Origin: a virus
Reading direction: 5' to 3' (one strand)
IMG/VR virus record: IMGVR_UViG_3300015265_000205
Location: 3,222-67,221 of that record
DNA length: 64,000 nt
Both the position numbers and the translations under genes were made by a program. The first letter of the stretch is position 1. Every line of letters starts with the position of its first letter. This document shows positions 1,710 through 62,147 of this stretch, piece by piece. Below the pieces are notes generated by a model. It was not told the origin of the DNA. It did not search any database and was given only the letters and a program-made list of their open reading frames with translations.

Positions 1710-1960
1710 TCCTCTACTGCCGGCAAATTAATCCACAGCCGGCCATCCACAATTTTGCATTGATTGCCATCGAGCCACTTGCCAGCCTTGCGGCGGGCCT
1801 GCACGGAATCGACGGAATCACCTGATATTTCGACGTAGCGCTCCAGCTTCACCCAAGCCAGAGGCTGACGCTCTGCCTCTGCCTTGGCGGCCGCCGCGCG
1901 CGCATTGCGCTCGATGGTCTCAACCAGCTTGGCTACCATGTCGTGCTCGGCCATGTTCAT
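1625..1960 (-). CDS. xis: Excisionase
   Basis: Directly upstream of int; WVKLERY...GKWLDG..CKIVDGRLWINLPAVEEW winged-helix Xis pattern. Confidence 0.8.
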   Translation of the reverse strand: MNMAEHDMVAKLVETIERNARAAAAKAEAERQPLAWVKLERYVEISGDSVDSVQARRKAGKWLDGNQCKIVDGRLWINLPAVEEWVAKWEQTSPARQASNSGRASKANRSA

Positions 1961-6021: not shown

Positions 6022-6029
6022 GATATTAT
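6021..6029 (+). promoter_or_regulatory. Extended -10 promoter candidate TG-A-TATTAT for the antisense gene at 6056
   Basis: TGnTAnnnT match overlapping the complement of the DUF5131 start codon. Confidence 0.55.
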
Positions 6030-6055
6030 TTCTATAAGGAAACTATGAAGTCACT

Positions 6056-6313
6056 ATGAAAATCGAACCGGATAACATCGCCAAACTTATCGGCGGCATT
6101 TCTTTGTTGGTTGGGCTAGGATTCGCTGTCCCCGCCATCCTGGCCTATTGGACCAAGCACGAAGTCTGTCAGCGAGTGCTTCTAAAATATGCCAACGATG
6201 GCGACTCCTTGTCATGCGAAGCTGCTAAGGCGAGAGAGAGTAAGGAGCAACAGGCTGAGAAGAAGGCGAAGCAGGAAGCACCTGTCGTGAGCCATTCGAA
6301 GCCTGCGCAGTAA
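6056..6313 (+). CDS. Small membrane protein antisense to the leftward operon
   Basis: One TM segment ([22 protein letters not shown]), Cys pair, charged tail; lower GC than neighbours. Confidence 0.7.
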
Positions 6314-13511: not shown

Positions 13512-13582
13512 TGGCGCCCCGGCAGGGAATCGAACCCTGCTGATGCCGGCCGCACTGTCCGGCACCCAGTCCACTACGGGGC
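13512..13582 (-). ncRNA. tRNA-like RNA (non-canonical)
   Basis: Acceptor GCCCCG/CGGGGC, 3' GCCA, T-arm GCAGGG-TTCGATT-CCCTGC, middle stem GTGCCGG/CCGGCAT, no D stem. Confidence 0.55.
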
Positions 13583-13859
13583 TTTCAATCCTGCGTACGC
13601 CAGGAAGCGCGGCCGGTGCGGGTCGTAACTCCGGCGCTTGATACATCGCGTGCCCGCTGACGCAATTCATAGTGCTGGCGGCCCTGTCGATCCGTCGGGC
13701 GTGTGATTCCTGCGGCTGGTGGGCCGCCAACAAGGGAGGCGTTTGGTCAGACGGCGGGATTTGCTTTCGGCTCGGCCCCGCTTGCATAGTGCAAACGCCT
13801 CTCTTGTTGGCCGCCGGTTACGCCGGCGAAACGGGCCAGGGCGACTGGCCGGGGTGAAA

Positions 13860-15715: not shown

Positions 15716-16411
15716 TTAAATTCTATCCCCTTCACGCCTCACGACTCTGCCGATAATAATGCACTCACCGTTTCTGCACATCTTACGGTGGAATTTTCTC
15801 TGGTCAGCATTATCGGAGGTTAGCCACCATTCGCCAATGTCACGCGAGAGACGTTTAACCACAACCTCTCCCTCATAATTCACTGCAAAAACCACACCGT
15901 CAGCTGGTTTGTTGTCATCCGTATTGAGGATGACAACATCATCTTCGTGCAATGCCGGCTCCATACTTTCGCCTTTAACTTTTATGGCGATTAGCTTTTC
16001 TGGGTTGTATCTATGCTTCGCCACCCATTTTGGGTCCAGTGCAATAGTCCCGCCATCTTCAAATTCCGGCTCTGTTTTAAATCCCGTCATTCCAGCGGAC
16101 AGGCGAAGTTTTACTTTTCTAATGAGGATGAACTCGGTGTCATGTAGCGCCTTGACTTCGACCTTGAGTGCGCCAGGAACGCCCGATGCTCCGGGCGACA
16201 GCGCCATCGGCCCCTCCCCAGTCTCAAGCCAAGTTGCCGAGCAACCCAAAATACTTTGAGCGTTGATCAGCCCCGCCTTCGAGATCCCTCGCGCCTCCCA
16301 GTTATTTATCACTTGCGAAGAAACGTTTAAGGCGCGCGCGACCTCGGCCTGGCTTTCAATGCCCTTGAGAGTCTTTGCAGCCTCGTAAAGTCGTGTCATC
16401 TGTATATGCAT
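15716..16411 (-). CDS. cI: CI-like repressor (HTH plus S24 peptidase)
   Basis: SQAEVARALNVSSQVINNWE HTH; LSAG cleavage site, VKGESMEP, VVKRL. Confidence 0.93.
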   Translation of the reverse strand: MHIQMTRLYEAAKTLKGIESQAEVARALNVSSQVINNWEARGISKAGLINAQSILGCSATWLETGEGPMALSPGASGVPGALKVEVKALHDTEFILIRKVKLRLSAGMTGFKTEPEFEDGGTIALDPKWVAKHRYNPEKLIAIKVKGESMEPALHEDDVVILNTDDNKPADGVVFAVNYEGEVVVKRLSRDIGEWWLTSDNADQRKFHRKMCRNGECIIIGRVVRREGDRI

Positions 16412-17630: not shown

Positions 17631-17894
17631 ATGACGCAAACAACTGCAATTAAGCCATACCGCTCGCTGGACGACGCCCACGGCAATAACGAATTGCTTG
17701 ACATGCTGCTGGCCAAAGGCCCGAAGAACGATGCAGCGCTTGCCCGCGCGCTGGAAGTGGCGCCGCCAGTGATTTCCAAGATTCGCCACGGCCGCCTGCC
17801 AATCGGCGCCTCGCTGCTGATTCGCATGCACGAGGTGTTCGACGTGTCGATCCGCGAGCTCAAGCGCATCGCGCGCGCTGAGGTGGCGGCTTGA
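17631..17894 (+). CDS. HTH DNA-binding protein
   Basis: KNDAALARALEVAPPVISKIRHGRLPIG. Confidence 0.8.
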   Translation: MTQTTAIKPYRSLDDAHGNNELLDMLLAKGPKNDAALARALEVAPPVISKIRHGRLPIGASLLIRMHEVFDVSIRELKRIARAEVAA

Positions 17895-18117
17895 CCTGGG
17901 CGACATTGCGGGCGGCGCCCGGCGCAAGCACGGCGCAGGGCGAGCAGGGCGGCGACGCCCGGCAAGATCCGCACGATGGCGCGTTGCCTGTCGATCCTGG
18001 CCATGTGCGGACGCGTCAGCACTACGAAGCAATGCTCGAAGAGCAGCGCGCCAGCCAATAAAAAAGCCCGCTTGCAGGCGGGCTTCCTTGAAACGCTATA
18101 AATCTTTGAGAGAATTT

Positions 18118-18876
18118 ATGAGCCAAATTGTACAACACAAAGGCATCACGATAGCGAATACGCTGATCGCGGTCGATAAAGAAGGCCGCTTTTGCCTCAA
18201 CGACCTGCACAAGGCCGCGGGCGCGGAAAGCCGCCACCAGCCTGCATTCTTCTTCCGCCGCCCGGAAATCCAGGAACTGGAAGCGGAATTAAACTCTGCG
18301 CCGGCGCAGAGTTTGCAGACCATCACCACCCAAGGCCGTAACGGTGGCACCTACGTCTGCAAGGAACTGGTCTACGCCTACGCTATGTGGATCAGTCCCA
18401 AGTTCCACCTGGAAGTCATCCGCACCTTTGATGCCGTGGCCACCGGCCAGACGCCGGCCGCCGCGCCCGCGCGCAGCGCAGTCTCGCCCGCCAAGGAATT
18501 CCGCGCCATCTTCGGCATTGCACGCCTGATCGGCCTCGACAAGAATGCTGCGGCGATCAGCGCAAACCAGGGTACGGCCGCGCTGACCGGCGTGAACATG
18601 CTGCAGCTGATGGAGCGTACGCACCTGGCCACGCCCAGCCAGGAGATTTACTACACGCCGACGGAGCTGGGCAGCCGCTTCGTCAAGAGCGCCAAGGCGT
18701 TCAACCAGTTGCTGGTGCAGGCCGGTCTGCAAGAGAGTATTGCAGGCCATTGGGTACCGACGGAAAAGGGGCGCGCGCACGCTTTCGTGGCGGACACCGG
18801 CAAGGCGCACTCCAGCGGCACGCCTATCCAGCAAGTGAAATGGCGCGACTCGGTCCTGGCGGAGGTGGCATTGTGA
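18118..18876 (+). CDS. KilA-N domain (antirepressor-like) protein
   Basis: GRFCLNDLHKAAG, GGTYVCKELVYAYAMWISPKF. Confidence 0.88.
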   Translation: MSQIVQHKGITIANTLIAVDKEGRFCLNDLHKAAGAESRHQPAFFFRRPEIQELEAELNSAPAQSLQTITTQGRNGGTYVCKELVYAYAMWISPKFHLEVIRTFDAVATGQTPAAAPARSAVSPAKEFRAIFGIARLIGLDKNAAAISANQGTAALTGVNMLQLMERTHLATPSQEIYYTPTELGSRFVKSAKAFNQLLVQAGLQESIAGHWVPTEKGRAHAFVADTGKAHSSGTPIQQVKWRDSVLAEVAL

Positions 18877-18950
18877 ATAGCCTGTCGAGCAATCCGTCGA
18901 GCCCAAGCAAAGGTGCGCATCCATACGCCCATGCAAAAACGATAAGCGGT

Positions 18951-19199
18951 TTAGTTGATCAAATCGAGCACAGCACCGGAATTGATCAGTTCAAGGCTAT
19001 AGGCATCAGCCTCGATGAGCGCTGCACTCAATTTTTTAAACGCCGCTTGAGTGGAAACGATAACCGGAGGGGTAATTCGCTCTCCCGTATCTTCGCGACC
19101 CACAAAAAATATTTGCCCCCTGAAACGATTATCCGCTTCTTGAATCGCATCGACATGGTAGATGAAGCCACCGACGCAATGCATTTCTTTGGTTTTCAT
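18951..19199 (-). CDS. Antisense small protein A
   Basis: AAGGGA RBS, lower GC, extended -10 TG-A-TAGGGT at 19225-19233. Confidence 0.7.
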   Translation of the reverse strand: MKTKEMHCVGGFIYHVDAIQEADNRFRGQIFFVGREDTGERITPPVIVSTQAAFKKLSAALIEADAYSLELINSGAVLDLIN

Positions 19200-19309
19200 G
19201 TCATCCCTTCTTGCTCAAGAGTTAACCCTATCATTGCTATCAGTCTTCTAGGCGCTCGATACACTTTGATTGATGCGCCGCATGCGTTTGCGGTATCGGG
19301 AGGTCAGGG

Positions 19310-19654
19310 ATGAATTCCGCACGTCATTCCGCCAACGCCGACCGCGCCGCCGAAATTCTGGCCACAGTCAAGCGCTGTGGCGCCGCGACCATCGGCGATA
19401 TCGCCCTTGACCTGACGCTTCACCGCGAGACCGTGCGCAAACGCCTGGCCAAGCTGGTCACGGCCGGCCAACTCGTGTTGATCGAGCCGGCAGCTGCGCA
19501 CGTTCGCGCCCTGTACGGCATGCCCGATCTGGATGATCAGGCTGAATTCGACCTCTACCGTAATCGCAGCAGCAACTGGCCGCGCGGCGAGCACGGCCGT
19601 GATCCACTCGTCGCCGCCATGTTCGGCGCACCAGCTGCAGAGGTGCGCCCATGA
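19310..19654 (+). CDS. Winged-helix HTH protein
   Basis: ATIGDIALDLTLHRETVRKRLAKL. Confidence 0.75.
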   Translation: MNSARHSANADRAAEILATVKRCGAATIGDIALDLTLHRETVRKRLAKLVTAGQLVLIEPAAAHVRALYGMPDLDDQAEFDLYRNRSSNWPRGEHGRDPLVAAMFGAPAAEVRP

Positions 19655-21549
19655 AGCGCGACCTCATTACCATCGCCAAAGAATTCCGCCACTTTCATTT
19701 TTGCTGCGGCCTTGGCGGCGGGAAGCAAGGCTTTAATGCAGCGCAGCCACAGGTCGGCAATATGGCCGCGACGCTGCGCTGCATCGGCGGCATCGACAAT
19801 GATCCTGCGGCGATCCGCGACTTCGACCGTGCCGGCCCCGGCCGCCCTGGTACCGTCATGGACCTGTTCACGCGAGCCCAATATACGGCCTTTCACGGGA
19901 AAGAGCCGCCCCCACGCTGGCGCGAGGCTACTGCCGTCGATATCCGTCGTGCGGCCGGCAATGAATCGCCGAACATCGTATTCATCAGCTCCCCATGCAA
20001 GGGGGCCAGCGGCCTGCTGAGCGAAACGTTAAGCAAGACGGCAAAGTACCAGGCGTTGAACGAGTTGACGCTGCGCTGCATTTGGCTGATGTGCGAGGCC
20101 TGGGCCGACGACCCCGTCGACTTGATCGTGTTCGAGAACGTGCCTCGGCTCGCCACGCGCGGTCGGCACCTGCTCGACCAGATCAATCAGCTACTGCAGC
20201 AGTTCGGTTACGCCGTGGCCGAAACCACGCATGATTGCGGCGAGCTGGGCGGCCTGGCGCAAAGCCGCAAGCGGTTTTTGCTCGTGGCGCGCAACATGGA
20301 AAAAGTGCCACCATTCCTCTATGAGCCAGAGCGGAAGCGCCTGCGCGCCGTCGGCGACGTGCTGGGCCGCATGCCGTTCCCTGGCGATGCCGCTGGCGGC
20401 CCGATGCATCGTATTCCGCGCCTGCAGTGGAAAACGTGGGTGCGCCTGGCGTTTGTGGAGGCCGGCAGCGACTGGCGCTCCCTGAATAAGCTCACCGTCG
20501 AGAATGGCCACTTGGCTGATTACCTGATCATGCCTGAGCGCTTCGGCGACTACCTGGGTGTGAATGGCTGGGACGAGCATGCCGGCGCCGTGTCCGGACG
20601 CGGTACTCCGACGACGGGCGCGTATTCGGTCGCCGATCCGCGCATGGATACGGTTGCTGAATACAGCCAGTACGGTGTCATGCCTTGGGACGCAACCAGT
20701 GGCGTGGTCAGCGCGCAGTCAGCGCCTGGTGGCGGCCGTTATTCCGTAGCCGATCCACGCCCACCGGCCGGCCCGATATTCAGCAAGTACGCGGTCACCC
20801 GCTGGGATAAACGCACGGGCACCGTCATTGGCGGTGACGACCAGGGCGCCTACGCCGTGGCCGATCCACGATCGAGCACGGGCTTCGAAGGCGCAGGCAA
20901 GTACCTGGTCACGCCGTTCGATGAGGCGGCCGGCACGGTGATCGCTGGCAGCACGACCGGCCAGGGCGCATTCTGCGTCGCCGATCCCCGCGCGATCAAT
21001 CGCCAGAAAGGTGATGCATTCCTGACCGGCGGCCATTACGGCGTGCTGCCGTGGAATGGCCAGAGCGGCGCTGTCAGCGCATCGGCCGGCTACGACAATG
21101 GCCGCTGGAGCATCGCAGACCCGCGCATCGACGAAGCGCCGCAGCTGCCGGCCCTGAACCAGAAGACGGTCGCGCTTATTCGCGCGCTCGACAGCACCTG
21201 GCACCGGCCATTCACCACGCTGGAACTTGGGGCGCTGCAATCGCTGATCGATCCGGACGAGCACTGGTCGACCGATCCGCAAATCCAGCGTGAAATTGAC
21301 GAGCACAAGCGCCGGACCGGCGCCAGCGCCTTCCCGCTGCTCGATGGCACGAACGATAGCGCGCATCGCGAACGCATCGGCAATGCCGTCCCGAAGCTGG
21401 CCGCGCAGGCCATCGGCGAGGTGATGGGCACCACGTTGTTGCTGGCAGCTGCTGGCGAGACGTTCATGCTCAGCGCCATGCCGATATGGGTGCAGCCCGT
21501 GGCGATCGCGATTGCGGCGTCGCAGGCTGGCGCGGGAGGTGAGTTGTGA
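19651..21549 (+). CDS. DNA (cytosine-5) methyltransferase with repeat-expanded variable region
   Basis: FCCGLGG (I), SSPC (IV), ENV (VI), QSRKR (VIII), IGNAVP (X). Confidence 0.9.
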   Translation: MKRDLITIAKEFRHFHFCCGLGGGKQGFNAAQPQVGNMAATLRCIGGIDNDPAAIRDFDRAGPGRPGTVMDLFTRAQYTAFHGKEPPPRWREATAVDIRRAAGNESPNIVFISSPCKGASGLLSETLSKTAKYQALNELTLRCIWLMCEAWADDPVDLIVFENVPRLATRGRHLLDQINQLLQQFGYAVAETTHDCGELGGLAQSRKRFLLVARNMEKVPPFLYEPERKRLRAVGDVLGRMPFPGDAAGGPMHRIPRLQWKTWVRLAFVEAGSDWRSLNKLTVENGHLADYLIMPERFGDYLGVNGWDEHAGAVSGRGTPTTGAYSVADPRMDTVAEYSQYGVMPWDATSGVVSAQSAPGGGRYSVADPRPPAGPIFSKYAVTRWDKRTGTVIGGDDQGAYAVADPRSSTGFEGAGKYLVTPFDEAAGTVIAGSTTGQGAFCVADPRAINRQKGDAFLTGGHYGVLPWNGQSGAVSASAGYDNGRWSIADPRIDEAPQLPALNQKTVALIRALDSTWHRPFTTLELGALQSLIDPDEHWSTDPQIQREIDEHKRRTGASAFPLLDGTNDSAHRERIGNAVPKLAAQAIGEVMGTTLLLAAAGETFMLSAMPIWVQPVAIAIAASQAGAGGEL

Positions 21550-22025
21550 TGGCGAACACTCGAACCGAAGCCGGCCGCTTCATGGCTGGCAAAAGCTATT
21601 CGCCGGCCACGCAGTTCAAGCCTGGCCAACATCCGGCGCCGGCGACAGAAATTCAGCCTGGCCAGCGGCTCTCGCCGGCCACGGAATTCAAGCCCGGCAT
21701 GGACGCGCACAACCGGCTACCTGTCGGCGCCGTGCGCGTGCGCCGCGAAACGCATACCGGACTCGATCGCGCCTGGGTAAAAACGGCCGAGCCGAACGTA
21801 TGGCGCAAGCGGGCGGTGCTGGTATGGGAGGCGGAGCACGGACCGGTGGCGCGCGGCCTGGTCATTCACCACCGCGACCGTGACAGCTTGAACGACGCGC
21901 CGGCCAATCTCCAGGCGCTGACGCGCAAGGAGCATGCGGACGAGCACCGTTGCGAACTAGAGTCAGCCCGCGCGCGTAACGGTGCCAACTTCGCGCATGA
22001 GCGCGAGATTGCGAGGGTGGCGTGA
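21546..22025 (+). CDS. HNH endonuclease with N-terminal (S/A)PATxF/IxPG repeats
   Basis: VIHHRDRDSLNDAPANLQAL..H. Confidence 0.8.
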   Translation: MMANTRTEAGRFMAGKSYSPATQFKPGQHPAPATEIQPGQRLSPATEFKPGMDAHNRLPVGAVRVRRETHTGLDRAWVKTAEPNVWRKRAVLVWEAEHGPVARGLVIHHRDRDSLNDAPANLQALTRKEHADEHRCELESARARNGANFAHEREIARVA

Positions 22026-22027
22026 AC

Positions 22028-22261
22028 TTATCCGGCCTCCGTCGCAAGCCTTTGATTTACCCAGCGCTTCCCATATTCGCGTCCGCTGTTCAGGGCTTCA
22101 TCGAGCGTATTGCAAGCAGGGATGTCTGCAAGGCGGTGGCACTCACCCCCAAAGTTCGGGCAAATGTCCACTACGTTAATAAACATTGGCCTCCCTTCTA
22201 TTTCCCGTTCCTGAACGTCAGAAAGAATCACAAAAGTTTTGTACGGGACGCTATCGCTCAT
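22028..22261 (-). CDS. Antisense small protein B
   Basis: GAGG RBS, lower GC, extended -10 TG-T-TACGAT at 22287-22295. Confidence 0.72.
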   Translation of the reverse strand: MSDSVPYKTFVILSDVQEREIEGRPMFINVVDICPNFGGECHRLADIPACNTLDEALNSGREYGKRWVNQRLATEAG

Positions 22262-22294
22262 TTCAGCCTCGACTTAATAAAAGGATATCGTAAC

Positions 22295-22726
22295 ATGATC
22301 GCCAACCCCGCTCAAATCACCCGCCACCACATGGCGAACCAGGCCGCGCCCGCCTATTCGCTTATCCGCAAGGTCTGCGCCTGCGGCAAGGCCAGCACCG
22401 CTAAACAACTGTCCCAGCACGGCAAATGCGCCGCCTGCGCGCTGGCCGCCGTCCGCGCCGCAATCATGCCCGGCGACTTCGCCAAGCTGCAGCACATGCT
22501 GGGCGCCGTGCAGCAATATCCGAAGTCAAAGTGGGGCTGGCGCAATTATTTTGCCGCCGGCAGCGGCCAGCAGCACGAGGCCATGCAGCGCCTGGTGTCC
22601 GCCGGCCTGGCCACAGCCAGCCGGGCCGCCAACGAAATGACCTACTTCCATGCTACTCGCTTGGGCTGCAAGGCTGCTGGCCTCGATGCCGCTGGCATCA
22701 AGCGCGCGATGGAGGATGCATCGTGA
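22295..22726 (+). CDS. Hypothetical protein
   Basis: AAAGGA RBS; CACG..CAAC; WGWRNYF. Confidence 0.7.
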   Translation: MIANPAQITRHHMANQAAPAYSLIRKVCACGKASTAKQLSQHGKCAACALAAVRAAIMPGDFAKLQHMLGAVQQYPKSKWGWRNYFAAGSGQQHEAMQRLVSAGLATASRAANEMTYFHATRLGCKAAGLDAAGIKRAMEDAS

Positions 22727-23337
22727 CCATCAAAATTTCGACCGCAACCGTATTCCACGGCGGCCGGCGCCGCTGGTTATCGCTGGCTGCCGCGTGCAAT
22801 GCCGAGGCTGCCGCCATCTTGAGCAGGTTTTGCGACTGCTCGCCCGGCAACGGGCATGACGTCGCGCCGGAAACTTGCACCATGCATCAGGATGCCGATC
22901 GCTATCACCAGGTTCGCGCCAAACTGGTGGCCCGGGCGCGCCGGTGCGCTGTGGCGTCGCCTGCCGACCTGCCTGCACCCGAGCAGCGCGCGCTGGCCGC
23001 CTGTCGGGAGTTGGTAGCCGCAGCCGGCGAGGTCAAGCGCATCAGCAAGGTCATCGGCGACAGCCTGAGCGCATGCCCGATGATGAAAGACCCTGTCGAA
23101 TTCAACGACAGAGGCCCGGCTACACATCTTTCGCAGGCCTACGCCTCCGAAAACGTCGAGAACGACAGCGGCCACGGCATGCACAAGGAATGGATGGAGC
23201 CGAGCGACGCGCTGAAAATTATTAGCGCATGCCCGCATTGCCTCGCCGCCCACAAAGCAATTCAAGAGCGCAAGGTCGCGCGCCGCCGGCTGGGCGCGGC
23301 ACGCCGTGCTGTGACGATGATCGGGCGCGCGCCATGA
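22723..23337 (+). CDS. Hypothetical protein
   Basis: GTGA-coupled; CPHC motif. Confidence 0.65.
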   Translation: MTIKISTATVFHGGRRRWLSLAAACNAEAAAILSRFCDCSPGNGHDVAPETCTMHQDADRYHQVRAKLVARARRCAVASPADLPAPEQRALAACRELVAAAGEVKRISKVIGDSLSACPMMKDPVEFNDRGPATHLSQAYASENVENDSGHGMHKEWMEPSDALKIISACPHCLAAHKAIQERKVARRRLGAARRAVTMIGRAP

Positions 23338-23339
23338 AA

Positions 23340-23564
23340 TTACCCGGCTGCAAGCCTATTTACATACTCTTTTGCTTTTTCCATCGCGTTCGATTCTGCC
23401 AAGGTCGGAGTATCGAGCGCGCTTACGATATCTGCGCCATGAATTTTGGCGCCATCTTTGTGGACTCGAAAGATGCCAAACCACTGGCCCGGGGTTTTGC
23501 TTTCGTAGGCGCCAAATTCAATGACGTGGCCCTTGTAGTCGCGCTGGGTTGTCGTAATCGGCAT
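23340..23564 (-). CDS. Antisense small protein C
   Basis: AAGGA RBS, lower GC, extended -10 TG-C-TAAAAT at 23589-23597. Confidence 0.75.
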   Translation of the reverse strand: MPITTTQRDYKGHVIEFGAYESKTPGQWFGIFRVHKDGAKIHGADIVSALDTPTLAESNAMEKAKEYVNRLAAG

Positions 23565-23596
23565 ATCAGAATCCTTAATAAAAAGGAAATTTTAGC

Positions 23597-24136
23597 ATGA
23601 TGCGCCGATCACCACTAAAGCCCGGAGCTGGCTTTAAAAGCCGAGCCTTCGCGCGCGGCGAGCGCATCGAGGCGCGCGAAGTGTCAAAGCTCAAGCGCGC
23701 CTCGCCAATGGCCAGCACCGGCATGCTCTCCGTGCAGTCGCACCAGCGCACGGCGAAGACGCGCAAGGCCGGATTGAAATCAAAAGAGCGCGCCGTCACG
23801 GCCGCCGAGAAATTGCTGTGGTCCCGCTTGGCCGCGCTGGGCTGCGTCGCCTGCGCGAAGGACGGCAATTTCAATCCTCACGTCAGCATTCATCACGTCG
23901 ACGGCCGGACGAAGCCTGGCTGCCACCAGCTCGTGCTGCCACTTTGCGCCGGTCACCACCAGGACGGTACCGGCCAAGACAAGACGATGGTCGCGGTTCA
24001 TCCATGGAAGGCGCGTTTCGAAGCGCGCTACGGCACGCAGGCCGAACTGATGGATGAGTGCGCGCAACTCTTATTTGAAAAGCAGGGCGCTGCGGCGTCG
24101 CCTGCCACCATTCAACCTACATTGGAACACCCATGA
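23597..24136 (+). CDS. Ref-like (recombination enhancement) HNH nuclease
   Basis: LGCVAC..SIHHVDGR..VLPLCAGHHQ..FEARYGTQ. Confidence 0.75.
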   Translation: MMRRSPLKPGAGFKSRAFARGERIEAREVSKLKRASPMASTGMLSVQSHQRTAKTRKAGLKSKERAVTAAEKLLWSRLAALGCVACAKDGNFNPHVSIHHVDGRTKPGCHQLVLPLCAGHHQDGTGQDKTMVAVHPWKARFEARYGTQAELMDECAQLLFEKQGAAASPATIQPTLEHP

Positions 24137-26760
24137 GCGCATTTAGCCCGCAAGAGCAAAAACACCTGAAAGAAGCCGCGTACAGTGAATTCCTGCGCGC
24201 CAAGATCAAGCTGGCCCAGCGCAAGGGCTTCGACGTGCCGCTGGCCGATATCCACCCTGGCCTCAAGCCACACACCCGCGACATCGTGCGCTGGGCCTTG
24301 GCCGGCGGCCAGCGCGCCATCTTCGCCTCGTTCGGCCTGCACAAGACCAGCACCAACCTAGAGGTGATGCGCCAGATCGGCATCCACCGGCCAGGCCTGC
24401 GCCTGATCGTGCTGCCACTGGGCGTGCGCCAGGAGTTCATCCGCGAGGCCGCGAAGCGCTTCACCGGCGAGTACGAAGTGCAGGTGCGCTTCATCCGTAC
24501 GGACGCCGAGATCGACGGCCAGGACGTCGTCTACCTGACGAATTACGAATCGGTGCGCGAGGGCAAGATTGATGTGCGCAAGTTCCGCGCCGTCGGCCTG
24601 GACGAGGCCAGCGTGCTGCGCAGCTACGGCAGCAAGACCTATCAAGAGTTCCTGCCACTGTTCGAGCAGGTCGAGTTCAAGTTCGTCTACACGGCCACGC
24701 CGTCACCTAACCGTTTCAAGGAATTGATCCACTATGCGGGCTTCCTGGGCGTGATGGACACCGGCCAGGCCCTGACGCGCTTTTTCCAGCGCGACAGCGA
24801 GAAGGCCGGCAACCTGACGCTGTACCCGCACAAGGAACAGGAATTCTGGCTGTGGGTGGCCAGCTGGGCGGTTTTCATCCAGCGCCCGAGCGACCTTGGC
24901 CATTCGGACGAAGGCTACGATCTGCCGGCGCTGGATGTGCGCTTTCACGAGGTGCCGAGCAACTACAGCACGGCCGGCGCCGAAAAGAACGGCCAGGGCC
25001 TGCTGATCCCGAACGTGGCCATGGGCCTGTCGGCCGCTGCCGGCGAGAAGCGCGACAGCATGGCCGCGCGCGTCGCCAAGGTGGCCGAGATCATGGCTGA
25101 GGATCCTGATGATCATTTCCTGATCTGGCACGACTTGGAGGACGAGCGGCACGCCATCCAGGCGGCCGTGCCCGGCGTGGTCAGCGTGTGGGGCACGCAG
25201 GACCTGGACCAGCGTGAGCAGCGGATCGCCGATTTCAGCGATGGCAAGATCAAGGATCTGTCGACCAAGCCAATCATCGCCGGCAGCGGCTGCAACTTCC
25301 AGGTGCACTGCCACCGCGAGATTTTCGCGGGTATCGGCTTCAAGTTCAACGATTTCATCCAGGCCGTCCACCGCGTCCAGCGCTTCCAGCAGCAGCACGC
25401 CGTCCGTATCGACATCATCCACACGGAAGTCGAGCGCAAGGTACTGGCCGACCTGATGGAAAAATGGCGCCGCCACGACGAAATGCAGGCCAAGATGGGC
25501 CAGATCATCCGCGCCTATGGCCTCGACCAGCTGTCCATGCAGGACTCGCTCGCGCGCACCATTGGTGTCGAGCGCGCCGTCGTAGCCGGCGAGCGGTTCT
25601 CGGTGGCTAACAACGACTGCATGCTCGAAGCCATGCAGCAGCCGGACAACTCGGTGGGCATGATCATCACCAGCGTCCCGTTCGCCAACCATTACGAATA
25701 CACGCCCAGTTACAACGACTTCGGCCACACCCAGGACAACGACCATTTTTGGGCGCAGATGGACTTCCTGACGCCGGAACTGCTGCGTATCCTGCAGCCT
25801 GGCCGCATTTACGCTTGCCACGTGAAGGACCGGATCAATTTCGGCAACGTTACCGGCGCCGGCGTGCCGACTGTCAGCCCGTTCCATGCCGAGGCGCTGT
25901 TTCACGGTATTAAGCACGGCTTCGACTACATGGGCATGATCACCGTCGTGACAGATGTGGTGCGCGAAAACAACCAGACCTACCGCCTGGGCTATTCCGA
26001 AGTGTGCAAGGACGGCACGAAGATGGGCGTCGGCTCGCCGGAATACATCCTGCTGTTCCACAAGCCGCAGACGGACCGCTCGCGCGGCTACGCCGATGTA
26101 CCGGTTACGAAGGCAAAGCCGCTGTGCCTGGATGATGCCGGCGACCGGATCCCGTTTGATCGCAAGGCCGCGCCCATTCCCGGTACCGGCTACAGCGTGG
26201 CACGCTGGCAGGTCGACGCGCATGCGTTCTGGCGCTCCAGTGGCGATCGCCTGCTGGGCGCGGCCGAGCTGGCCAGCTTCGGGCCGGGCAAGCTGGCGAA
26301 GCTTTTCACCAGCATGTCGCTGGACAACGTCTACAACTACGAATACCACGTCGAGGTGGGCGAGGCGCTGCTGTCCGGCAAGGCGCTGCCTGCGGATTAC
26401 CTCAGCCTGGCGCCGGGCAGCGCTGACCCGGCCGTGTGGCACGACATCGTGCGCATGCGCACTTTGAATGGTGAGCAGTCGGCGCGCGCGGTCGAAAAGC
26501 ACGTTTGCCCGTTCCAGATCGATATCGTGGACCGTCTGATCGGCCGTTACAGCAATCCGGGCGAGGTGATCTATGACCCATTCTGCGGCCTGGGCACCGT
26601 GCCCGTGCGCGCCATGAAGCTGGGCCGTCAGGGACGCGGCAGCGAGCTGAACCCGGCATATTTCGCTGACCAGGTGCACTACTGCCAAGCGATGGAGCGC
26701 GAAGTCAGCATGCCTACGCTATTCGATATGGAACTGATGGACGAGGAGAATGCGAAGTGA
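24133..26760 (+). CDS. SNF2-like helicase fused to an amino (N4-C/N6-A) DNA methyltransferase
   Basis: GLHKT, LDEAS, TATP in the N-half; ITSVPF and YDPFCGLGT in the C-half. Confidence 0.85.
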   Translation: MSAFSPQEQKHLKEAAYSEFLRAKIKLAQRKGFDVPLADIHPGLKPHTRDIVRWALAGGQRAIFASFGLHKTSTNLEVMRQIGIHRPGLRLIVLPLGVRQEFIREAAKRFTGEYEVQVRFIRTDAEIDGQDVVYLTNYESVREGKIDVRKFRAVGLDEASVLRSYGSKTYQEFLPLFEQVEFKFVYTATPSPNRFKELIHYAGFLGVMDTGQALTRFFQRDSEKAGNLTLYPHKEQEFWLWVASWAVFIQRPSDLGHSDEGYDLPALDVRFHEVPSNYSTAGAEKNGQGLLIPNVAMGLSAAAGEKRDSMAARVAKVAEIMAEDPDDHFLIWHDLEDERHAIQAAVPGVVSVWGTQDLDQREQRIADFSDGKIKDLSTKPIIAGSGCNFQVHCHREIFAGIGFKFNDFIQAVHRVQRFQQQHAVRIDIIHTEVERKVLADLMEKWRRHDEMQAKMGQIIRAYGLDQLSMQDSLARTIGVERAVVAGERFSVANNDCMLEAMQQPDNSVGMIITSVPFANHYEYTPSYNDFGHTQDNDHFWAQMDFLTPELLRILQPGRIYACHVKDRINFGNVTGAGVPTVSPFHAEALFHGIKHGFDYMGMITVVTDVVRENNQTYRLGYSEVCKDGTKMGVGSPEYILLFHKPQTDRSRGYADVPVTKAKPLCLDDAGDRIPFDRKAAPIPGTGYSVARWQVDAHAFWRSSGDRLLGAAELASFGPGKLAKLFTSMSLDNVYNYEYHVEVGEALLSGKALPADYLSLAPGSADPAVWHDIVRMRTLNGEQSARAVEKHVCPFQIDIVDRLIGRYSNPGEVIYDPFCGLGTVPVRAMKLGRQGRGSELNPAYFADQVHYCQAMEREVSMPTLFDMELMDEENAK

Positions 26761-26995
26761 CGCGCGCAAATTTCCGGGAAGCCGTGCTGGGCTCGATGCC
26801 TGACCCGAAATCTCGCTCAATTTCTTCTGGGATGTCAACGTCGCGTAACAAGCTTGTTTTGACCGCACCTCCCATTGCTGTGGCTGCTCGCGACATTGTG
26901 AGGTCAACGACAGGCGTCCGTGACGCCCCTCATTTTCTGGCATCTTTGACTTGCCTGCGCGCCGTTGGCGCCGCTAAAACAATAGGAGAAAGGCC

Positions 26996-27187
26996 ATGAT
27001 GCCGACACCCCCCGTGAACATGCGCCGCATTGCGGCCTGCACCACCACTCATGTTCTGCGCCTCAGGGACGACACCGAACTGTGTGACCGTCACAAGGCC
27101 CGTAGCCAGGCGCGAAAGCTCAAACCCGAGGGTGAGCCGCTAGTCGCTGCCTTGTTCGGCGCGGCGCATGCGCAGGAGGCTCGCTGA
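26996..27187 (+). CDS. Small hypothetical protein
   Basis: AGGAG RBS; stop overlaps the next ATG. Confidence 0.5.
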   Translation: MMPTPPVNMRRIAACTTTHVLRLRDDTELCDRHKARSQARKLKPEGEPLVAALFGAAHAQEAR

Positions 27188-28059
27188 TGGGCCGCATTCG
27201 CACTGTAAAACCGGAGCTGTTTAAGCATGAAGACCTGTTTGACCTTGAGCAGCAGTCCGGGCTTCCAATCCGCACCGCATTCATGGGCCTTTTCACCTGC
27301 TGCGACAAGGAAGGGCGCTTTAAATGGCGCCCGCGCGCGCTCAAGCTCGATATTCTTCCATACGACGAAATTGATTTTTCACGCGTGCTTGACGCGTTGA
27401 TGACGCGTGGATTTGTAGTGAAATATGAGGTCGAAGGCGAGTTTTTCGGCTTCATTCCGACGTTTTCCAAGCACCAAGTCATAAATAATCGTGAATCTGA
27501 CTCGGAATTGCCAGCGCCGGACGAATGCTTATGTATATCAATGACTTCGACGCGTGCGGCACGCGTGGATGACGCGACAGTCACGCCCCTTAAGCATGCT
27601 CAAGTGGAAGGGAAGGGAAAGGAAGGGAAAGGAAGGGAAGGGGAACAGGAAGGGAAGGAGACTCTTGTCGAGCAAACCCAGCTCGACCCCGTGACGACGA
27701 TCTTCGCGTTCTGGCAAAAAGTCATGGACTCGCCCAAGTCAGTTCTGGACGACAAGCGCAAGCGGCTGATCGTCAAGGCGCTGAGGGGTTACTCGCCGGC
27801 CGACATCTGCAAAGCCATCCGTGGCTGCTCGAAGACGCCTCACAACATGGGCCAGAACGATGCGAGAACGAAGTACAACGGCCTGGGCCTGATCCTGCGC
27901 GATGCCGACCACATCGACCGCTTCATCCGCAACGATGCTGGCCAGGCCCGCGCCAACGCAGGCAACGAGACTATCGAGCAGACGAATGAGCGGGTCATGC
28001 GCGAGTTGATGGGCGCCTCCGCGCCAGCTGGCGACATCATCGACATGGTGCCGGCATGA
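27187..28059 (+). CDS. Replication initiator (O-like)
   Basis: MGRIRTVKPELF...CDKEGRF N-terminus; internal DNA repeats. Confidence 0.8.
   Translation: MGRIRTVKPELFKHEDLFDLEQQSGLPIRTAFMGLFTCCDKEGRFKWRPRALKLDILPYDEIDFSRVLDALMTRGFVVKYEVEGEFFGFIPTFSKHQVINNRESDSELPAPDECLCISMTSTRAARVDDATVTPLKHAQVEGKGKEGKGREGEQEGKETLVEQTQLDPVTTIFAFWQKVMDSPKSVLDDKRKRLIVKALRGYSPADICKAIRGCSKTPHNMGQNDARTKYNGLGLILRDADHIDRFIRNDAGQARANAGNETIEQTNERVMRELMGASAPAGDIIDMVPA
27381..27660. repeat. Candidate replication origin: ACGCGT repeats and GGAA(A)G purine tract
   Basis: Five ACGCGT plus one ACGCGA in two clusters, then a GGAAGGGAAAGG repeat at ~27606-27660 inside the initiator gene. Confidence 0.55.
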
Positions 28060-28871
28060 ACGCCGTCGACACACCGCGCTTCATGCAGCTGCTGGCCGAG
28101 ACCTTGGCTGCCTACGGCAAGCCGTTGCCCGAGGCCGCGATGGCGCGCGCCTGGCTGGCCAATCTTGAACCGTACCCGCTGCCCACGGTGGCAGCCGCCT
28201 TGCAGGCCTATCGCGACGAGAACGGCGAATTTGCGCCGGTGCCGGCCGGCATCGCCAAGCGTTGCAAGCTCATGGACGGCCGCCCGGGCGCGGAGGAGGC
28301 ATGGGCTATCGCGCTGACCAGCCAGGACGAAATGGCCAGCGTGGTTTGGACGACCGAGATTGCTGAGGCCTTCCGCATCTGCCGGTCAGTGCTCGACTCC
28401 AGCGGCGCCATCAGCGCCCGCAAGCCGTTCCTGGAGGCCTACGAGCGCATCGTTGCCGCAGCGCGCGCTGCGCGGCACCCGGCCGAGTGGGTGGCGTCCG
28501 TGGGCTGGGACAAGACCCGCCACGTCGAGGTGCTGGGTAATGCGGTGAGGGCAGGGCTCCTTCCGGCGCCGGCCGTGGCAGGCCTGCTGCAGGGCAAGCA
28601 GGACCAGACGCCGGACGACGCCGCGCGCGCCCAGCTTGCCGCCATCAAAAAAATGATTTCCGACGGCGCTGCCGCGAAGGAAGCGGCGCGCTTGGAGCGC
28701 GTCGAGCAGCAGCGCCTGGCGGACGAAGAATTCAAACGGTCGACCGCTAAGCGCGTGCAGCTTTACCTAGCTGACGGCAGAAATGCACCTGGCCCGGCAA
28801 GCGCGAATGCTGCTCAGGATTTGCCAGAGGCACCGCCGCACTGCGCAAGGGCCATGACCGCTACGAAGTGA
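28056..28871 (+). CDS. Replication partner protein (P / helicase-loader-inhibitor-like)
   Basis: Follows the initiator; FAPVPAGI, DGRPGAEEAW. Confidence 0.7.
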   Translation: MNAVDTPRFMQLLAETLAAYGKPLPEAAMARAWLANLEPYPLPTVAAALQAYRDENGEFAPVPAGIAKRCKLMDGRPGAEEAWAIALTSQDEMASVVWTTEIAEAFRICRSVLDSSGAISARKPFLEAYERIVAAARAARHPAEWVASVGWDKTRHVEVLGNAVRAGLLPAPAVAGLLQGKQDQTPDDAARAQLAAIKKMISDGAAAKEAARLERVEQQRLADEEFKRSTAKRVQLYLADGRNAPGPASANAAQDLPEAPPHCARAMTATK

Positions 28872-28907
28872 CGTACCCATCAGAAAAAACGGCTTAAAAG
28901 GCTTTAA

Positions 28908-29243
28908 ATGAAAAATCAAGAAAACAAAATCGCAGCAAACAAACGCCTGGCCGAGCTGCTGGGCTGGACCAGCATTGTCGAGGTGGGTGGCGCCCTGGTC
29001 GGCACGCCGTCGGCGGGCGCCGCCGCAAGTCGCGGCCAGGCGCTGGTACCGGACTGGCTGGGCGACTGGGCGGCGGCCGGGCCGCTGCTTGCGCGGTTCG
29101 AAATTTACCCGATGTTCATGTCGACCTATGTCGGCGCAGGCGGCGCCGTCGAGCTTTATTCGGTCCATGGCGGCGACCGTGACGCGGCCGTACGGTTTGC
29201 CATCGTCAAGGCGGCAATGCTTCACCTGGAGCATGCGCAATGA
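28908..29243 (+). CDS. NinX-like hypothetical protein
   Basis: PDWLGDWAAAGPLL..AIVKAA pattern. Confidence 0.55.
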   Translation: MKNQENKIAANKRLAELLGWTSIVEVGGALVGTPSAGAAASRGQALVPDWLGDWAAAGPLLARFEIYPMFMSTYVGAGGAVELYSVHGGDRDAAVRFAIVKAAMLHLEHAQ

Positions 29244-29587: not shown

Positions 29588-30012
29588 TGGCTGCGAACAA
29601 GAAGCCGCGCAAGCGGTACATCCCGAAGCCAGCCGTGCTGCCGGCCGGGCTGCGCGCAGACCTCGCATTCGAAATGCCTGGCTTCCAGGCCAGTGAGGCG
29701 ATGGGGAAGGGGCACTTCCAGGAGCAGCACGTCTACGACCTGCTGAGCAACGCCGATATGGCGCGCCGCATTGCGCCAGCTGGCCATGCCATCCTCCCGG
29801 TGGCCCAGGCCATGGTCGAGGCGATTGCCGAAATCCAGGCGCGCGCCCAGCGCACGGGCACCTTCGGCGTCAACGGCGACGAAATGCGCGTGCTGCGCGA
29901 TGGCGTCGGCAAGACGATGGTCTTCCTGCGCGGCGTACCGAACGTCGCAATTGCGCGCGCTGGCCTTGCAGCCGTGCGCGAATTCAACCGGACCGGCGTG
30001 CTGCGTGTGTGA
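29587..30012 (+). CDS. Hypothetical protein
   Basis: MAANKKPRKRYIPK; TGATG coupling. Confidence 0.7.
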   Translation: MAANKKPRKRYIPKPAVLPAGLRADLAFEMPGFQASEAMGKGHFQEQHVYDLLSNADMARRIAPAGHAILPVAQAMVEAIAEIQARAQRTGTFGVNGDEMRVLRDGVGKTMVFLRGVPNVAIARAGLAAVREFNRTGVLRV

Positions 30013-30089
30013 GCGGCCCCGAGGAGTGGCAGGGCTGGCACAGGGCTAAAAAGGGTGTTAACGTTGGCATACAAAATGAAAGGCAAGAC

Positions 30090-30632
30090 ATGGGCTTTAC
30101 AGACCGCTACATCGCATCGATAGGTTCGAGCAACCTGATGGACGACGCGCAGCACCATCAGACGGACCCGCTGGCAGCCGCGGCGCTGGCCGGTGACATC
30201 GGTGCGCTGCTGTGCCGCGTGAAGTACGCAGACGGCACGCTCAACCGGATGTTCGAGGGCAACCAGCAGAACCTGGCGCAGCTGCTGCGTATCTGGACTG
30301 CAGAAGTCATCCGGCGCGGCCGGGCGCGCCGCTGGCTGCCGGAAAACACGGCCTGGGACGCGCAGTCGGCGCAGGCGCTGTATCACCGTGTGGCCGAGAA
30401 GTCGCTGGCGCACTGGCTCGATGGCAAGTGCAAGGGCTGCAGCGGCACCGGCGTCAAGGTGCTGCTGGGGAATGGACAGTGCACGTCGTGCAAGGGAACC
30501 GGCGTGGCGCCAGTGTACGGCGTGGCTGGCTTGGAGCTGGAGCGGGTCAAGGACATGGTGAGCGAGCTGAGCGCCATTTACGACAGCCATTCTGGCCGGG
30601 CAGGCGGTCTGTTACGCGGCGGAGATATGTAG
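30090..30632 (+). CDS. Q-like late antiterminator
   Basis: CKGCSGTG...CTSCKGTG zinc finger; last early gene before the late promoter. Confidence 0.7.
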   Translation: MGFTDRYIASIGSSNLMDDAQHHQTDPLAAAALAGDIGALLCRVKYADGTLNRMFEGNQQNLAQLLRIWTAEVIRRGRARRWLPENTAWDAQSAQALYHRVAEKSLAHWLDGKCKGCSGTGVKVLLGNGQCTSCKGTGVAPVYGVAGLELERVKDMVSELSAIYDSHSGRAGGLLRGGDM

Positions 30633-30655: not shown

Positions 30656-30695
30656 TTTACAAACAGTATTTCTGCGGTATACTTCAGACCATAAT
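30656..30695 (+). promoter_or_regulatory. pR'-like late promoter with sigma-dependent pause element
   Basis: TTTACA-N16-TATACT, then a -10-like CATAAT at about +1..+6. Confidence 0.7.
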
Positions 30696-30836
30696 TCAAG
30701 AAAATTCTTCCGGAAATCGTAATGTGCGCATCGCGCCACCGATAGCTGGAACTCGCGACAGTACCCGGACCCAGCGCCGTACCTGCACGCCTTGAATTTG
30801 CCGCTCACCACGCACTATGGCCGTGGGAGCAAGCCA

Positions 30837-30868
30837 AGCCCGACGCGCAAGCGACTCGGGCTTTTTTC
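30837..30868 (+). terminator. tR'-like intrinsic terminator
   Basis: AGCCCGA...TCGGGCT hairpin plus T-tract. Confidence 0.75.
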
Positions 30869-30873
30869 ATTGA

Positions 30874-31107
30874 TTATGTTTTGTGTATTGCAAAAACTGC
30901 TAAACGCCACTGGATTGGTTGATTTGCAGGGTGCTGCGCATGAATTTGCGGTGGCAGGATGTGCCCTTTAGCAATTCCGATTTCATGACCACATCCATCG
31001 CAACGATAGATGCCCGCGTCCGGAGCTGCAATGCCTGGGTTGTGCAGTAGGTCAAACGCCCTATGGTCAATCTTCGAAACAAACTGATCATATTTAAAGC
31101 TAGCCAT
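30874..31107 (-). CDS. Small zinc-ribbon moron (YjzC / 'protein L'-like)
   Basis: APDAGIYRCDGCGHE..LPPQ.H; GGAGGG RBS; AT-rich. Confidence 0.75.
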   Translation of the reverse strand: MASFKYDQFVSKIDHRAFDLLHNPGIAAPDAGIYRCDGCGHEIGIAKGHILPPQIHAQHPANQPIQWRLAVFAIHKT

Positions 31108-31435
31108 TGATTCCCTCCGTTTGAGTTGATGAAAAGTGTATTGGTTTATGCCAACTTCTTATTATTGCACATTGTCGCTTTGAAATTTTTAAATGATAAC
31201 AATTGCATTTTCTTGCCTCACTGGCGCAACCTGTATCCATACAGCAACAGCGACATCGTGCGCGATGAAGCAAAATTCGCAGGCATTTAGACCGCGAACA
31301 CGCTGAGCCGCAGCGCTTGTCGGCTGATGACTCGAAGGTAGTCATGTAAGCCGACCGGCCAGCAGGTTTGCTGCTGTGTGGCTGACGCGCGGACCTGACG
31401 GCTTGAAAGCTGCATAAGGTCACCGGTTCGATTTC

Positions 31436-31509
31436 GCGGGTGTAGCTCAATGGCAGAGCGGAAGCCTTCCAAGCTTTCCACGCGGGTTCGATTCCCGCCG
31501 CCCGCTCCA
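31436..31509 (+). tRNA. tRNA-Gly(TCC)
   Basis: Full cloverleaf GCGGGTG..GCTC/GAGC..GAAGC-CTTCCAA-GCTTT..GCGGG-TTCGATT-CCCGC..TCCA. Confidence 0.93.
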
Positions 31510-31587
31510 AATTCTCCTTGCCCGGTACGCTGGGTTTCGCCGCTGGCCGCATCACTGCGCTGGCGGTTTTTCTATTTGAGGTGCTGC

Positions 31588-61259: not shown

Positions 61260-61447
61260 GGAGTTCAGCAGGCGGGGGCCAGCCCTCATGGCCGGCGAGA
61301 TCGTCCTGACGCTAGCGCGAGACTGGCCTTGTGGAAGGAAGTATAAGTGAAACTGGAGGCGATTATTATGGGATGTAAAGAATAATTTCCGCTGAATCAT
61401 GTTGATCTGCTATTGTTGTAGTAAATTTTATTTCTGACGGATATTTC

Positions 61448-61744: not shown

Positions 61745-61813
61745 TGATTTTGAATTATTTTCATGATGTTTTTTTTGATAATTTATTCTGAAATTTTATT
61801 GATTTTTCGATAG

Positions 61814-62065: not shown

Positions 62066-62147
62066 TTGCGATTTGAATAGGAATGTTGATTTTCCTGGAG
62101 TGGTTGGCTAATTTAAAATCGTGTGAGATGAATGATTTTTCATATAA

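Follow-up and report, generated by a model that had tools for sequence, protein, structure and literature searches.

How can a temperate phage carry genes that point backward inside an operon needed for lytic growth without cutting that operon? The question is raised by IMG/VR virus record IMGVR_UViG_3300015265_000205. The stretch of DNA analyzed here, referred to as the window, comprises 64 kb of the 67.2-kb record; its nearest relatives are prophages in Janthinobacterium genomes, and by this kinship it is the prophage of a temperate Janthinobacterium phage. In the plus-strand early-right operon of the window, three small genes lie antisense, and each is spanned on the plus strand by an open reading frame (ORF). 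The minus-strand genes are termed cargo and the plus-strand frames that span them are termed bridges. Comparisons with related prophages demonstrate, at the level of sequence, that the open plus frame is maintained by selection against saturating synonymous change, with its ends fixed on the neighboring genes. We consider it probable that this selection keeps the early mRNA translatable across antisense accessory cargo, most likely preventing Rho-dependent polarity. The three bridges and their cargo genes, with lengths in codons or amino acids (aa), are as follows.

18873..19313, plus strand: bridge A, 146 codons, with a GTGA overlap with the KilA stop and an ATGA overlap with the gene at 19310
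18951..19199, minus strand: cargo gene A (P0001), 82 aa, with zero TTA/CTA/TCA codons
22022..22294, plus strand: bridge B, 91 codons, with a GTGA overlap with the HNH stop, continuing in frame into g22295
22028..22261, minus strand: cargo gene B (P0002), 77 aa
23334..23600, plus strand: bridge C, 88 codons, with ATGA overlaps at 23334 and 23597
23340..23564, minus strand: cargo gene C (P0003), 74 aa

All three bridges are stop-free, and each is in exact codon register with its minus gene. The plus ORFs open on GTG, GTG, and ATG codons that overlap the upstream stop (GTGA, GTGA, and ATGA for A, B, and C, respectively). Bridges A and C end on a TGA that overlaps the next ATG, and bridge B runs in frame into g22295. 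In bridges B and C, the third codon is the stop of the antisense gene. These coordinates, NTGA overlaps, and stop positions had been proposed in a first-pass annotation of the same DNA, and all were confirmed on re-check. The cargo segments have a GC content of 0.47-0.52, compared with 0.61-0.67 for the flanking genes. For an in-register plus frame to be stop-free, the cargo gene must avoid the codons TTA, CTA, and TCA, and cargo genes A, B, and C contain none of the three.

The same arrangement is observed in the relatives of the window. Forty-five loci were collected through g22295, the conserved gene into which bridge B runs; with the window, these give 46 sources, which reduce to 37 distinct ones after removal of 9 duplicates. 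The slot directly upstream of g22295 is filled in these sources as listed.

AT-rich insert with a minus gene directly upstream of g22295: 29 of 37 sources
GC-rich plus gene abutting g22295, no insert: 3 sources (L024, L026, L038)
Contig end too near to judge the slot: 2 sources (L019, L034)
Distant, partial g22295 homologues: 3 sources (L052, L053, L056)

The 29 inserts represent 18 sequence families of 61-216 codons, and a single open plus frame spans every one of them, in register in 25 and out of register in 4 (L013, L014, L015, and L029). In 22 of the 29 loci, the first start of the in-register frame overlaps the upstream stop (NTGA in 21 and TAATG in 1), and the frames of L013, L014, and L029 likewise begin 4 nt before the upstream stop. 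A conserved GAGGG motif precedes the overlapping start, and GAGGGTGGC-NTGA is conserved there. The bridges at this slot end in the ATGA of g22295, in TAATG, or by in-frame fusion to g22295. The junctions on both sides of the slot are conserved despite the unrelated cargo. Further slots, both downstream and upstream, carry larger antisense genes of 170-260 codons that are bridged likewise, and many of these larger cargo proteins belong to one superfamily that begins with an N-terminal membrane helix. The plus ORFs can be long: 393 codons in L015 (GC ~0.45), 213 and 391 codons in L012, and, in L029, 473 codons over two antisense genes and a truncated g22295, followed by 349 codons over a third antisense gene. 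In total, 55 cargo genes are spanned in register (47 genes), out of register (6), or not at all (2), with the in-register group divided as follows.

Open in register as first called: 39 of 55 cargo genes
Open in register after an over-extended 5′ end was cut at the ATG of the next plus gene: 8
Open out of register: 6
Not spanned: 2

In the 8 trimmed genes, every offending codon lies at or past the ATG of the next plus gene. Spanned cargo is found in 24 of 26 families, and cargo families recur at different slots. Cargo A has database homologues at 88% and 82% identity, and a homologue in L037 (37-38% identity) is likewise bridged. Cargo C has database homologues at 92% and 83% identity, and its 32% homologue, which occupies the g22295 slot of L036, is also bridged. 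Queries of viral contigs returned no homologue for cargo A or C and only weak partial matches for cargo B. As the first-pass annotation had anticipated, the bridges are uninterrupted in related prophages, both at the g22295 slot (29 of 29 inserts) and for long in-register antisense genes within the chain of coupled genes described below (37 of 37).

The codon usage of the cargo genes reflects this openness. In 28 cargo genes from the g22295 slot, comprising 3029 codons (L021, near-identical to L039, was left out), TTA occurs 2, CTA 2, and TCA 6 times, a total of 10 compared with 93.7 expected from the frequency of A-ending codons in the Val/Thr/Ala/Pro/Gly and Lys/Glu/Gln families. The same genes contain many other A-ending codons (ATA 38, GTA 35, GGA 49, and CGA 43). 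All distinct minus ORFs of at least 120 aa and GC <0.56 in the lysogeny arm of the same prophages served as controls (61 genes, 13,591 codons). TTA, CTA, and TCA account for 453 of the 13,591 control codons (3.33%) and for 48 of 8238 codons in the 55 cargo genes (0.58%), an approximately six-fold avoidance (Fisher odds ratio 0.17, P = 2e-47) that bears out the first-pass prediction. At least one such codon is present in 59 of the 61 controls; the two without any, L037 918-1292(-) and L042 434-808(-), are homologous 124-aa lysogeny-arm genes. From control usage, 3.6 of the 55 cargo genes are expected to be open in register, versus 39 seen (P ~1e-57) and 47 after trimming. With each family represented by a single gene, the expectation is 1.9 open genes out of 26, and 17 of 26 are seen (P ~2e-17). 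For the coding parts of the three window genes alone, control Leu/Ser codon use gives a probability of openness of 0.087 x 0.114 x 0.238 = 0.0024, to which the non-coding flanks add openness factors of 0.38 x 0.24 (A), 0.47 (B), and 0.37 (C).

The first-pass annotation carried the caveat that the codon-aligned register is the one in which shadow ORFs arise most easily, and the bridges could on this account be ordinary shadow ORFs, favored by the codon bias of a host with high GC content. Long in-register shadow ORFs do occur opposite GC-rich genes of the window; the one at 24703-26688(-), opposite the helicase/N6-methyltransferase gene, extends over 661 codons, with a GC content at third codon positions (GC3) of 0.85. 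Similarly, many antisense ORFs without protein-level selection are reported in the accessible portion of preprint 10.1101/724807. As the 661-codon shadow indicates, GC-rich genes readily leave this register open, whereas nearly all of the AT-rich controls (59 of 61) close it with a stop-equivalent codon. The caveat also fails to account for the 39-47 open genes where 3.6 are expected, the openness of the non-coding flanks, the six cargo genes that are bridged out of register, the coincidence of bridge ends with the stops and starts of neighboring genes, and the unbridged antisense genes that lie just outside the chain. The chance shadow ORF was rejected on the grounds that openness exceeds the prediction from codon usage and depends on context (37 of 37 in the chain versus 0 of 5 beyond it), and the probability that we leave to it is vanishingly small.

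Comparison with homologues in other genomes, a check that the first-pass annotation had proposed, gives the same result. Three full-length homologues of the DUF6680 cargo from other genomes contain 11/215, 12/191, and 14/180 TTA/CTA/TCA codons, the first of them at a GC3 of 0.57, whereas the bridged DUF6680 copies contain 0/191 and 0/190. For the membrane-protein superfamily, 12 of 13 homologues from other Burkholderiales genomes have 1-14 such codons, and the five of comparable GC3 (0.44-0.63) have 8, 2, 5, 5, and 4. The thirteenth homologue (L075 1357-2148(-) over 1426-2034(+)) has zero such codons and is spanned by a 263-codon opposite-strand ORF; judging from L075, the bridge pattern may reach beyond Janthinobacterium prophages.

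Which of the two strands codes at these loci was judged by substitution patterns and not by amino-acid composition. When homologous cargo is aligned codon by codon between prophages, the differences concentrate at minus third positions, as expected if the minus strand codes. This excess is seen in 12 pairs at the g22295 slot and in all 15 pairs drawn from cargo genes 150 aa or longer. The differences at minus codon positions 1, 2, and 3 are 4, 2, and 22 for L016/L017 (omega 0.04) and 40, 35, and 107 for L039/L045. Cargo B has homologues in the same slot of L018 and L025 (49-53% identity, omega 0.23-0.24), with 23, 20, and 40 differences at these positions versus L018 and 22, 23, and 42 versus L025. 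Where computable, omega is 0.04-0.49 in the minus frame and an apparent 0.6-2.7 in the plus frame, values that are indicative only, as the frames overlap. The minus ORFs have ATG starts with AGGA/GAGG-type motifs upstream, and the cargo of L039, L021, and L045 belongs to Pfam family DUF6680 (E 4e-44; 150.7 bits versus a gathering cut-off of 23.2; profile positions 4-167 of 170). A classifier based on amino-acid composition preferred the minus strand in 28 of 29 cases, weakly and with small margins. On this alignment evidence, the minus strand is the coding strand at the cargo loci.

Frames are open on both strands, and the starts of the plus ORFs are operon-like and carry Shine-Dalgarno (SD) sequences, features that would also be expected if the plus ORFs encoded functional proteins, either by dual coding or as the real genes with the minus ORFs as artifacts. 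Amino-acid identity between homologous cassettes is, however, 0.12-0.60 in the plus frame where it is 0.26-0.94 in the minus frame, and plus omega is ~1 or more; purifying selection constrains only the minus frame rather than both products. Plus translations of the bridges gave zero Pfam or PHROG matches, and they are rich in Cys, Phe, and Arg and resemble antisense junk, whereas on the minus side there are a Pfam family, confidently predicted folds, and dedicated ribosome-binding sites. Functional plus-strand proteins are, in our judgment, scarcely credible. Openness is conserved at these loci, and the plus "protein" is not.

The position of a cargo gene in the operon matters as well. The left arm of the window, to ~17 kb, is on the minus strand and has a CI-like repressor gene (15716-16411) at its end. 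The plus-strand early operon that follows begins with a Cro-like helix-turn-helix (HTH) gene, and the features that frame the bridges are listed below.

17631-17894, plus strand: Cro-like HTH gene, first gene of the plus-strand early operon
18088..28871, plus strand: coupled chain of the early-right operon, KilA-N through g28056
19310..19654, plus strand: HTH-like gene, its 5′ end split off by insert A
21546..22025, plus strand: HNH endonuclease gene, its 3′ end holding the SD and start GAGGGTGGC-NTGA that bridge B uses
22295..22726, plus strand: g22295, conserved anchor of the variable cargo slot, function unknown
22723..23337, plus strand: g22723, adjoining bridge C upstream, function unknown
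23597..24136, plus strand: Ref-like HNH gene, adjoining bridge C downstream
24133..26760, plus strand: helicase/N6-methyltransferase gene, downstream of all three bridges
27187..28059, plus strand: replication initiation protein gene (PHROG 16167, E 2.8e-73), downstream of all three bridges

By Pfam/PHROG names, the order in the chain is KilA-N, bridge A, small HTH, C5-cytosine methyltransferase, HNH endonuclease, bridge B with g22295, g22723, bridge C, Ref-like HNH, helicase/N6-methyltransferase, two small ORFs, replication initiator, and g28056. All 13 successive plus junctions between 18088 and 28871 have a stop/start overlap of 4 nt (NTGA) or 1 nt (TAATG), the configuration that defines a translationally coupled operon, and bridges A, B, and C are links in this unbroken chain, which leads to the helicase and replication-initiator genes. 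In our gene models, the chain breaks at a 103-nt gap (28871-28975). Farther downstream, an inter-operon stretch with a tRNA-Gly gene (31436-31509) parts the early operon from the late genes (metallopeptidase, terminase).

Survey of minus ORFs in the relatives demonstrates that openness depends on position within the coupled chain. A list of 139 minus ORFs was used only at lengths of at least 150 aa, below which it is noisy with shadows of real plus genes. The chain region, which extends from the Cro-like gene to the g28056/g28975 homologue, contains 40 minus ORFs of at least 150 aa and GC <0.56, and every one of them is spanned by an open frame along 90% or more of its length. The frame is in register for 37 of them, two others are shadows of the genuine replication-initiator gene, and L031 10329 is ambiguous. 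Past the chain boundary, 0 of 5 minus ORFs of at least 150 aa are spanned, and 81 of their 1299 codons are TTA, CTA, or TCA. Three ORFs of L046 could not be placed relative to the boundary; two of these are bridged and one is not. The first-pass claim that each antisense gene is bridged must be narrowed accordingly: it holds for A, B, and C and fails for 30874-31107(-), an inter-operon gene with 2 TTA/CTA/TCA codons, and for 6056-6313(+), which is antisense in the minus-strand left arm. Both of these unbridged genes sit outside the coupled chain, consistent with the logic of that claim, if not with its wording.

Other antisense arrangements are present as well. In the 6019-6313 region, the RdgC and DUF5131 genes flank a plus-strand gene whose 85-aa product is membrane-like, and each minus frame there contains 4 or more stops. 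A second cargo slot, within or after the g28975 homologue (L012 12672-13691(-), L015 15470, L028 15586, L031 15461, and L041 14255), carries wholly unbridged antisense genes of GC 0.34-0.47 and up to 339 aa; this slot may mark a transcription-unit boundary or hold recent acquisitions. Within the chain of the window, 26757-26999(+) is an 80-codon ORF with a GC3 of 0.52, no family match, and GTGA and ATGA overlaps as a chain link. Beneath it, minus ORFs of 60 and 74 codons (26714-26896 and 26719-26943) lie out of register, and the plus ORF may be a fourth bridge.

The sequence of events at junction A can be traced by comparison with relatives. Five relatives lack insert A at this junction, and their HTH gene starts at a GTG that overlaps the KilA stop; their homology to the window runs for ~20 codons before the point of insert A. 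In the window, the HTH gene restarts at a new ATG (19310) with its own GGGAGG. On this alignment, the start of bridge A is the ancestral, working start of the displaced HTH gene, which makes initiation at the bridge likely.

Conserved junctions on both sides of the g22295 slot and the recurrence of the same families at different slots also fit an acquisition filter, by which only stop-free cassettes would have settled when swapped via the conserved junctions. Members of a family differ at most synonymous sites (pS 0.57-0.86), yet all are open, which implies that new stops are continually removed. A filter would still be selection for openness and differs from continued selection in timing only; as the source of the open frames, we hold it to be very improbable.

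The following mechanism is proposed. Genes A, B, and C would be accessory, "moron"-like genes that were inserted antisense into the early-right operon and that, in the lysogen, probably rely on promoters of their own for expression. The insertions would each have left intact an SD sequence and an NTG start overlapping the upstream stop, such that ribosomes on the lytic plus mRNA should start there and run into the insert. Selection, past and ongoing, removes every plus-strand stop from the bridge frame, and the bridge ORF ends exactly on the start of the next operon gene or fuses to that gene. The bridge peptide would have no function of its own; gap-free ribosome cover of the transcript would be what counts. 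A plus transcript over a minus gene is otherwise an untranslated antisense RNA and thus falls into the class terminated by Rho with NusG, for which the available excerpts of PMC5909445 and PMC11551753 describe termination of both untranslated and antisense transcripts. The most likely benefit would be that the antisense stretch is shielded from Rho/NusG termination, with no polarity on the helicase and replication-initiator genes downstream. Preservation of termination-reinitiation coupling would be a secondary benefit; the downstream genes have SD sequences of their own, and coupling is therefore not strictly required.

Translation of the bridges might instead be needed for a reason other than Rho. 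Termination-reinitiation coupling itself, protection from RNase, blocking of a duplex with the cargo transcript, and assistance by a trailing ribosome to an RNA polymerase in head-on conflict are candidates. All junctions are of the NTGA coupling type, and a candidate constitutive antisense promoter at each slot would give rise to antisense RNA as well as to head-on transcription. The SD sequence of the gene that follows bridge C is paired within a hairpin at that junction (z = -2.46, matched by 4 of 200 shuffles). No such hairpin is found at A or B, and the SD sequences of the downstream genes again argue that coupling is dispensable. These possibilities are compatible with shielding from Rho and not mutually exclusive with it; in place of it, we judge them rather unlikely. 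A hairpin that hides the ribosome-binding site was rejected as a general coupling device, as it beats shuffled sequences at junction C only and not at A or B.

Several observations weigh against the proposed explanation of the bridges. The SD sequence of the gene after each bridge is a good one. C enrichment on the plus strand of the inserts is mild, with (C-G)/(C+G) mostly 0.0-0.17 and some values negative, and thus gives no strong sign of Rho-binding (rut) sites. At the g22295 slot, approximately one-third of the bridges continue in frame into g22295 and would thereby add a junk N-terminal extension to its product, an apparent cost. Two cargo genes are not spanned (L025 14484-14678 and L031 10329-10868), the long L046 ORF 12665-13462 is unbridged in a context that is not placeable, and 6056-6313(+) has 3 TTA/CTA/TCA codons and is crossed by no minus frame. 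Because all of the relatives are Janthinobacterium prophages, among which modules are exchanged, the loci lack full independence, for which the per-family count corrects in part only. That ribosomes translate the bridges is what we infer from the open frames and their starts, and the role assigned to Rho is hypothetical. The broader statement, that these reading frames are kept open purely as a ribosome track and that genes inserted backward in a coupled phage operon forgo TTA, CTA, and TCA or their boundary-crossing equivalents, we regard as about evenly balanced between true and false.

A pattern at the start of g22295 may serve as a cargo promoter.

22287..22315, minus strand: candidate cargo B promoter, with an extended -10 TGnTACGAT and a -35 TTGAGC 17 nt apart, read by eye

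The TG of TGnTACGAT derives from the complement of the g22295 ATG. By eye, most of the 29 loci show TGnTAnnAT immediately following the complement of the g22295 start, with a TTGAGC/TTGGGC hexamer 17 nt upstream of it, within g22295 codons 6-8. A consensus promoter scan listed none at the g22295 start, and the terminator-like hairpins found were weak only (e.g. 18928-18915(-)). The pattern could represent a resident candidate promoter for whatever cargo fills the slot. A TGaTATTAT pattern also overlaps the complement of the DUF5131 start codon in the left arm, mirroring the arrangement at the g22295 slot. The cargo has two hallmarks of morons: a GC content of 0.47-0.52 against a backbone of 0.61-0.67 and presence/absence or replacement between relatives, the g22295 slot holding 18 families in 29 loci and being empty in 3. 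Loci of the moron type are often highly expressed in lysogens, according to the portion of PMC7067206 available.

The cargo products themselves offer few clues. No Pfam, PHROG, or PADLOC family was found for cargo A, B, or C, and Atlas scores for cargo were <0.9, with DUF6566 as a weak lead that HMMER did not confirm. The exact sequence of cargo C is not among the proteins returned by the database search. AlphaFold2 models of cargo A (pLDDT 92.3) and cargo C (pLDDT 84.3) are alike, each a four-stranded antiparallel sheet followed by a C-terminal helix, with no detectable sequence similarity between the two proteins. Foldseek returned no match in the PDB at E <= 0.001 for cargo A or C; the nearest PDB fold for both is 2kon, an uncharacterized 82-residue Chromobacterium protein (TM 0.68 and 0.65, E not significant).

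Elsewhere in the window, a GC-rich hairpin with a T-run on the minus strand lies at 18062-18085, between the Cro-like gene region and KilA. It looks terminator-like for minus transcripts from cargo A and KilA antisense, and a 193-nt gap in plus coding is found there too. The inter-operon stretch 30656-31567 contains a promoter-like site, TTTACA-16-TATACT, and a terminator-like hairpin (31554-31567). A tRNA-His gene is located at 13516-13605(-). Near the right end of the record, 1.8 kb at a GC content of 0.40 (61111-62920) contains small ORFs only and is probably further cargo or an attachment-site region.

If selection acts as proposed, the need to translate the opposite strand would impose a strong, measurable constraint on synonymous codons without any useful protein, and screens for overlapping genes based on dN/dS would misread such selection. 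The arrangement would also answer the question posed at the outset, namely how cargo expressed in lysogeny can be carried antisense in an essential lytic operon. For annotation, it serves as a warning that either strand is callable as a gene in these prophages, and for engineered phage operons, it suggests a design rule for antisense payloads. If general, the bridges would form a new class of translated, product-less "spacer ORFs," would explain part of the unexplained prokaryotic antisense ORFs with stop-codon avoidance, and would provide a sequence-only signature of operons that escape Rho by translation rather than by antitermination factors.

One of the systems closest to the cargo is the moron, of which lambda bor is an example. 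Similar to morons, the cargo genes exceed the backbone in AT content, vary in presence among relatives, sit between genes of an operon, and probably have a promoter of their own. Unlike bor, which is unbridged, the cargo here is packed stop to start with nearly no spacer, and the opposite strand constrains its choice of synonymous codons. The bor gene has 3 TTA/CTA/TCA codons in 97, and all three frames across it are closed. The lambda late transcript that crosses bor is Q-antiterminated and termination-resistant.

The bridges are also reminiscent of leader peptides and upstream ORFs, in which ribosomes block Rho and the peptide itself is immaterial. In both cases, ribosome occupancy and not the product is proposed to sustain transcription. 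Leader ORFs are short regulatory switches in 5′ leaders, whereas the bridges are 88-473 codons long, lie within an operon, are constitutive, and cover a functional gene on the opposite strand. Lambda N and Q are phage antitermination factors. Together with P4 Psu, as treated in the accessible part of PMC11718236, they address the same problem, the passage of phage transcripts past termination. N, Q, and Psu do so as protein or RNA factors on RNA polymerase or Rho; here, the solution would sit in codon choice. No antiterminator was found among the window proteins scanned against Pfam and PHROG, which cover part of the window, and the last early gene (30009-30632) is without a match.

Two further systems share the open frames on opposite strands. 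The 2,898 antisense ORFs of preprint 10.1101/724807, described in its accessible portion as having stop-codon avoidance and no protein-level selection, use the same register and follow the same formula (Leu TTA/CTA, Ser TCA). This preprint, the nearest published item found, contains no mention of "phage" or "Rho" in its text, and the bridges differ from those ORFs in having defined ends, a dependence on operon position, and 26 unrelated cargo families. The asa locus of enterohemorrhagic Escherichia coli (EHEC), as presented in the available part of PMC6294744, likewise has long open frames on both strands of one locus; unlike overlaps of the asa type, protein-level constraint acts here on one strand only. 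A full-text literature search found no published account of phage operons in which open frames bridge antisense cargo. Shielding from Rho by translation, coupled operons, and morons are each of a kind already known, and the evolutionary signature of the bridged cargo is unusually clean.

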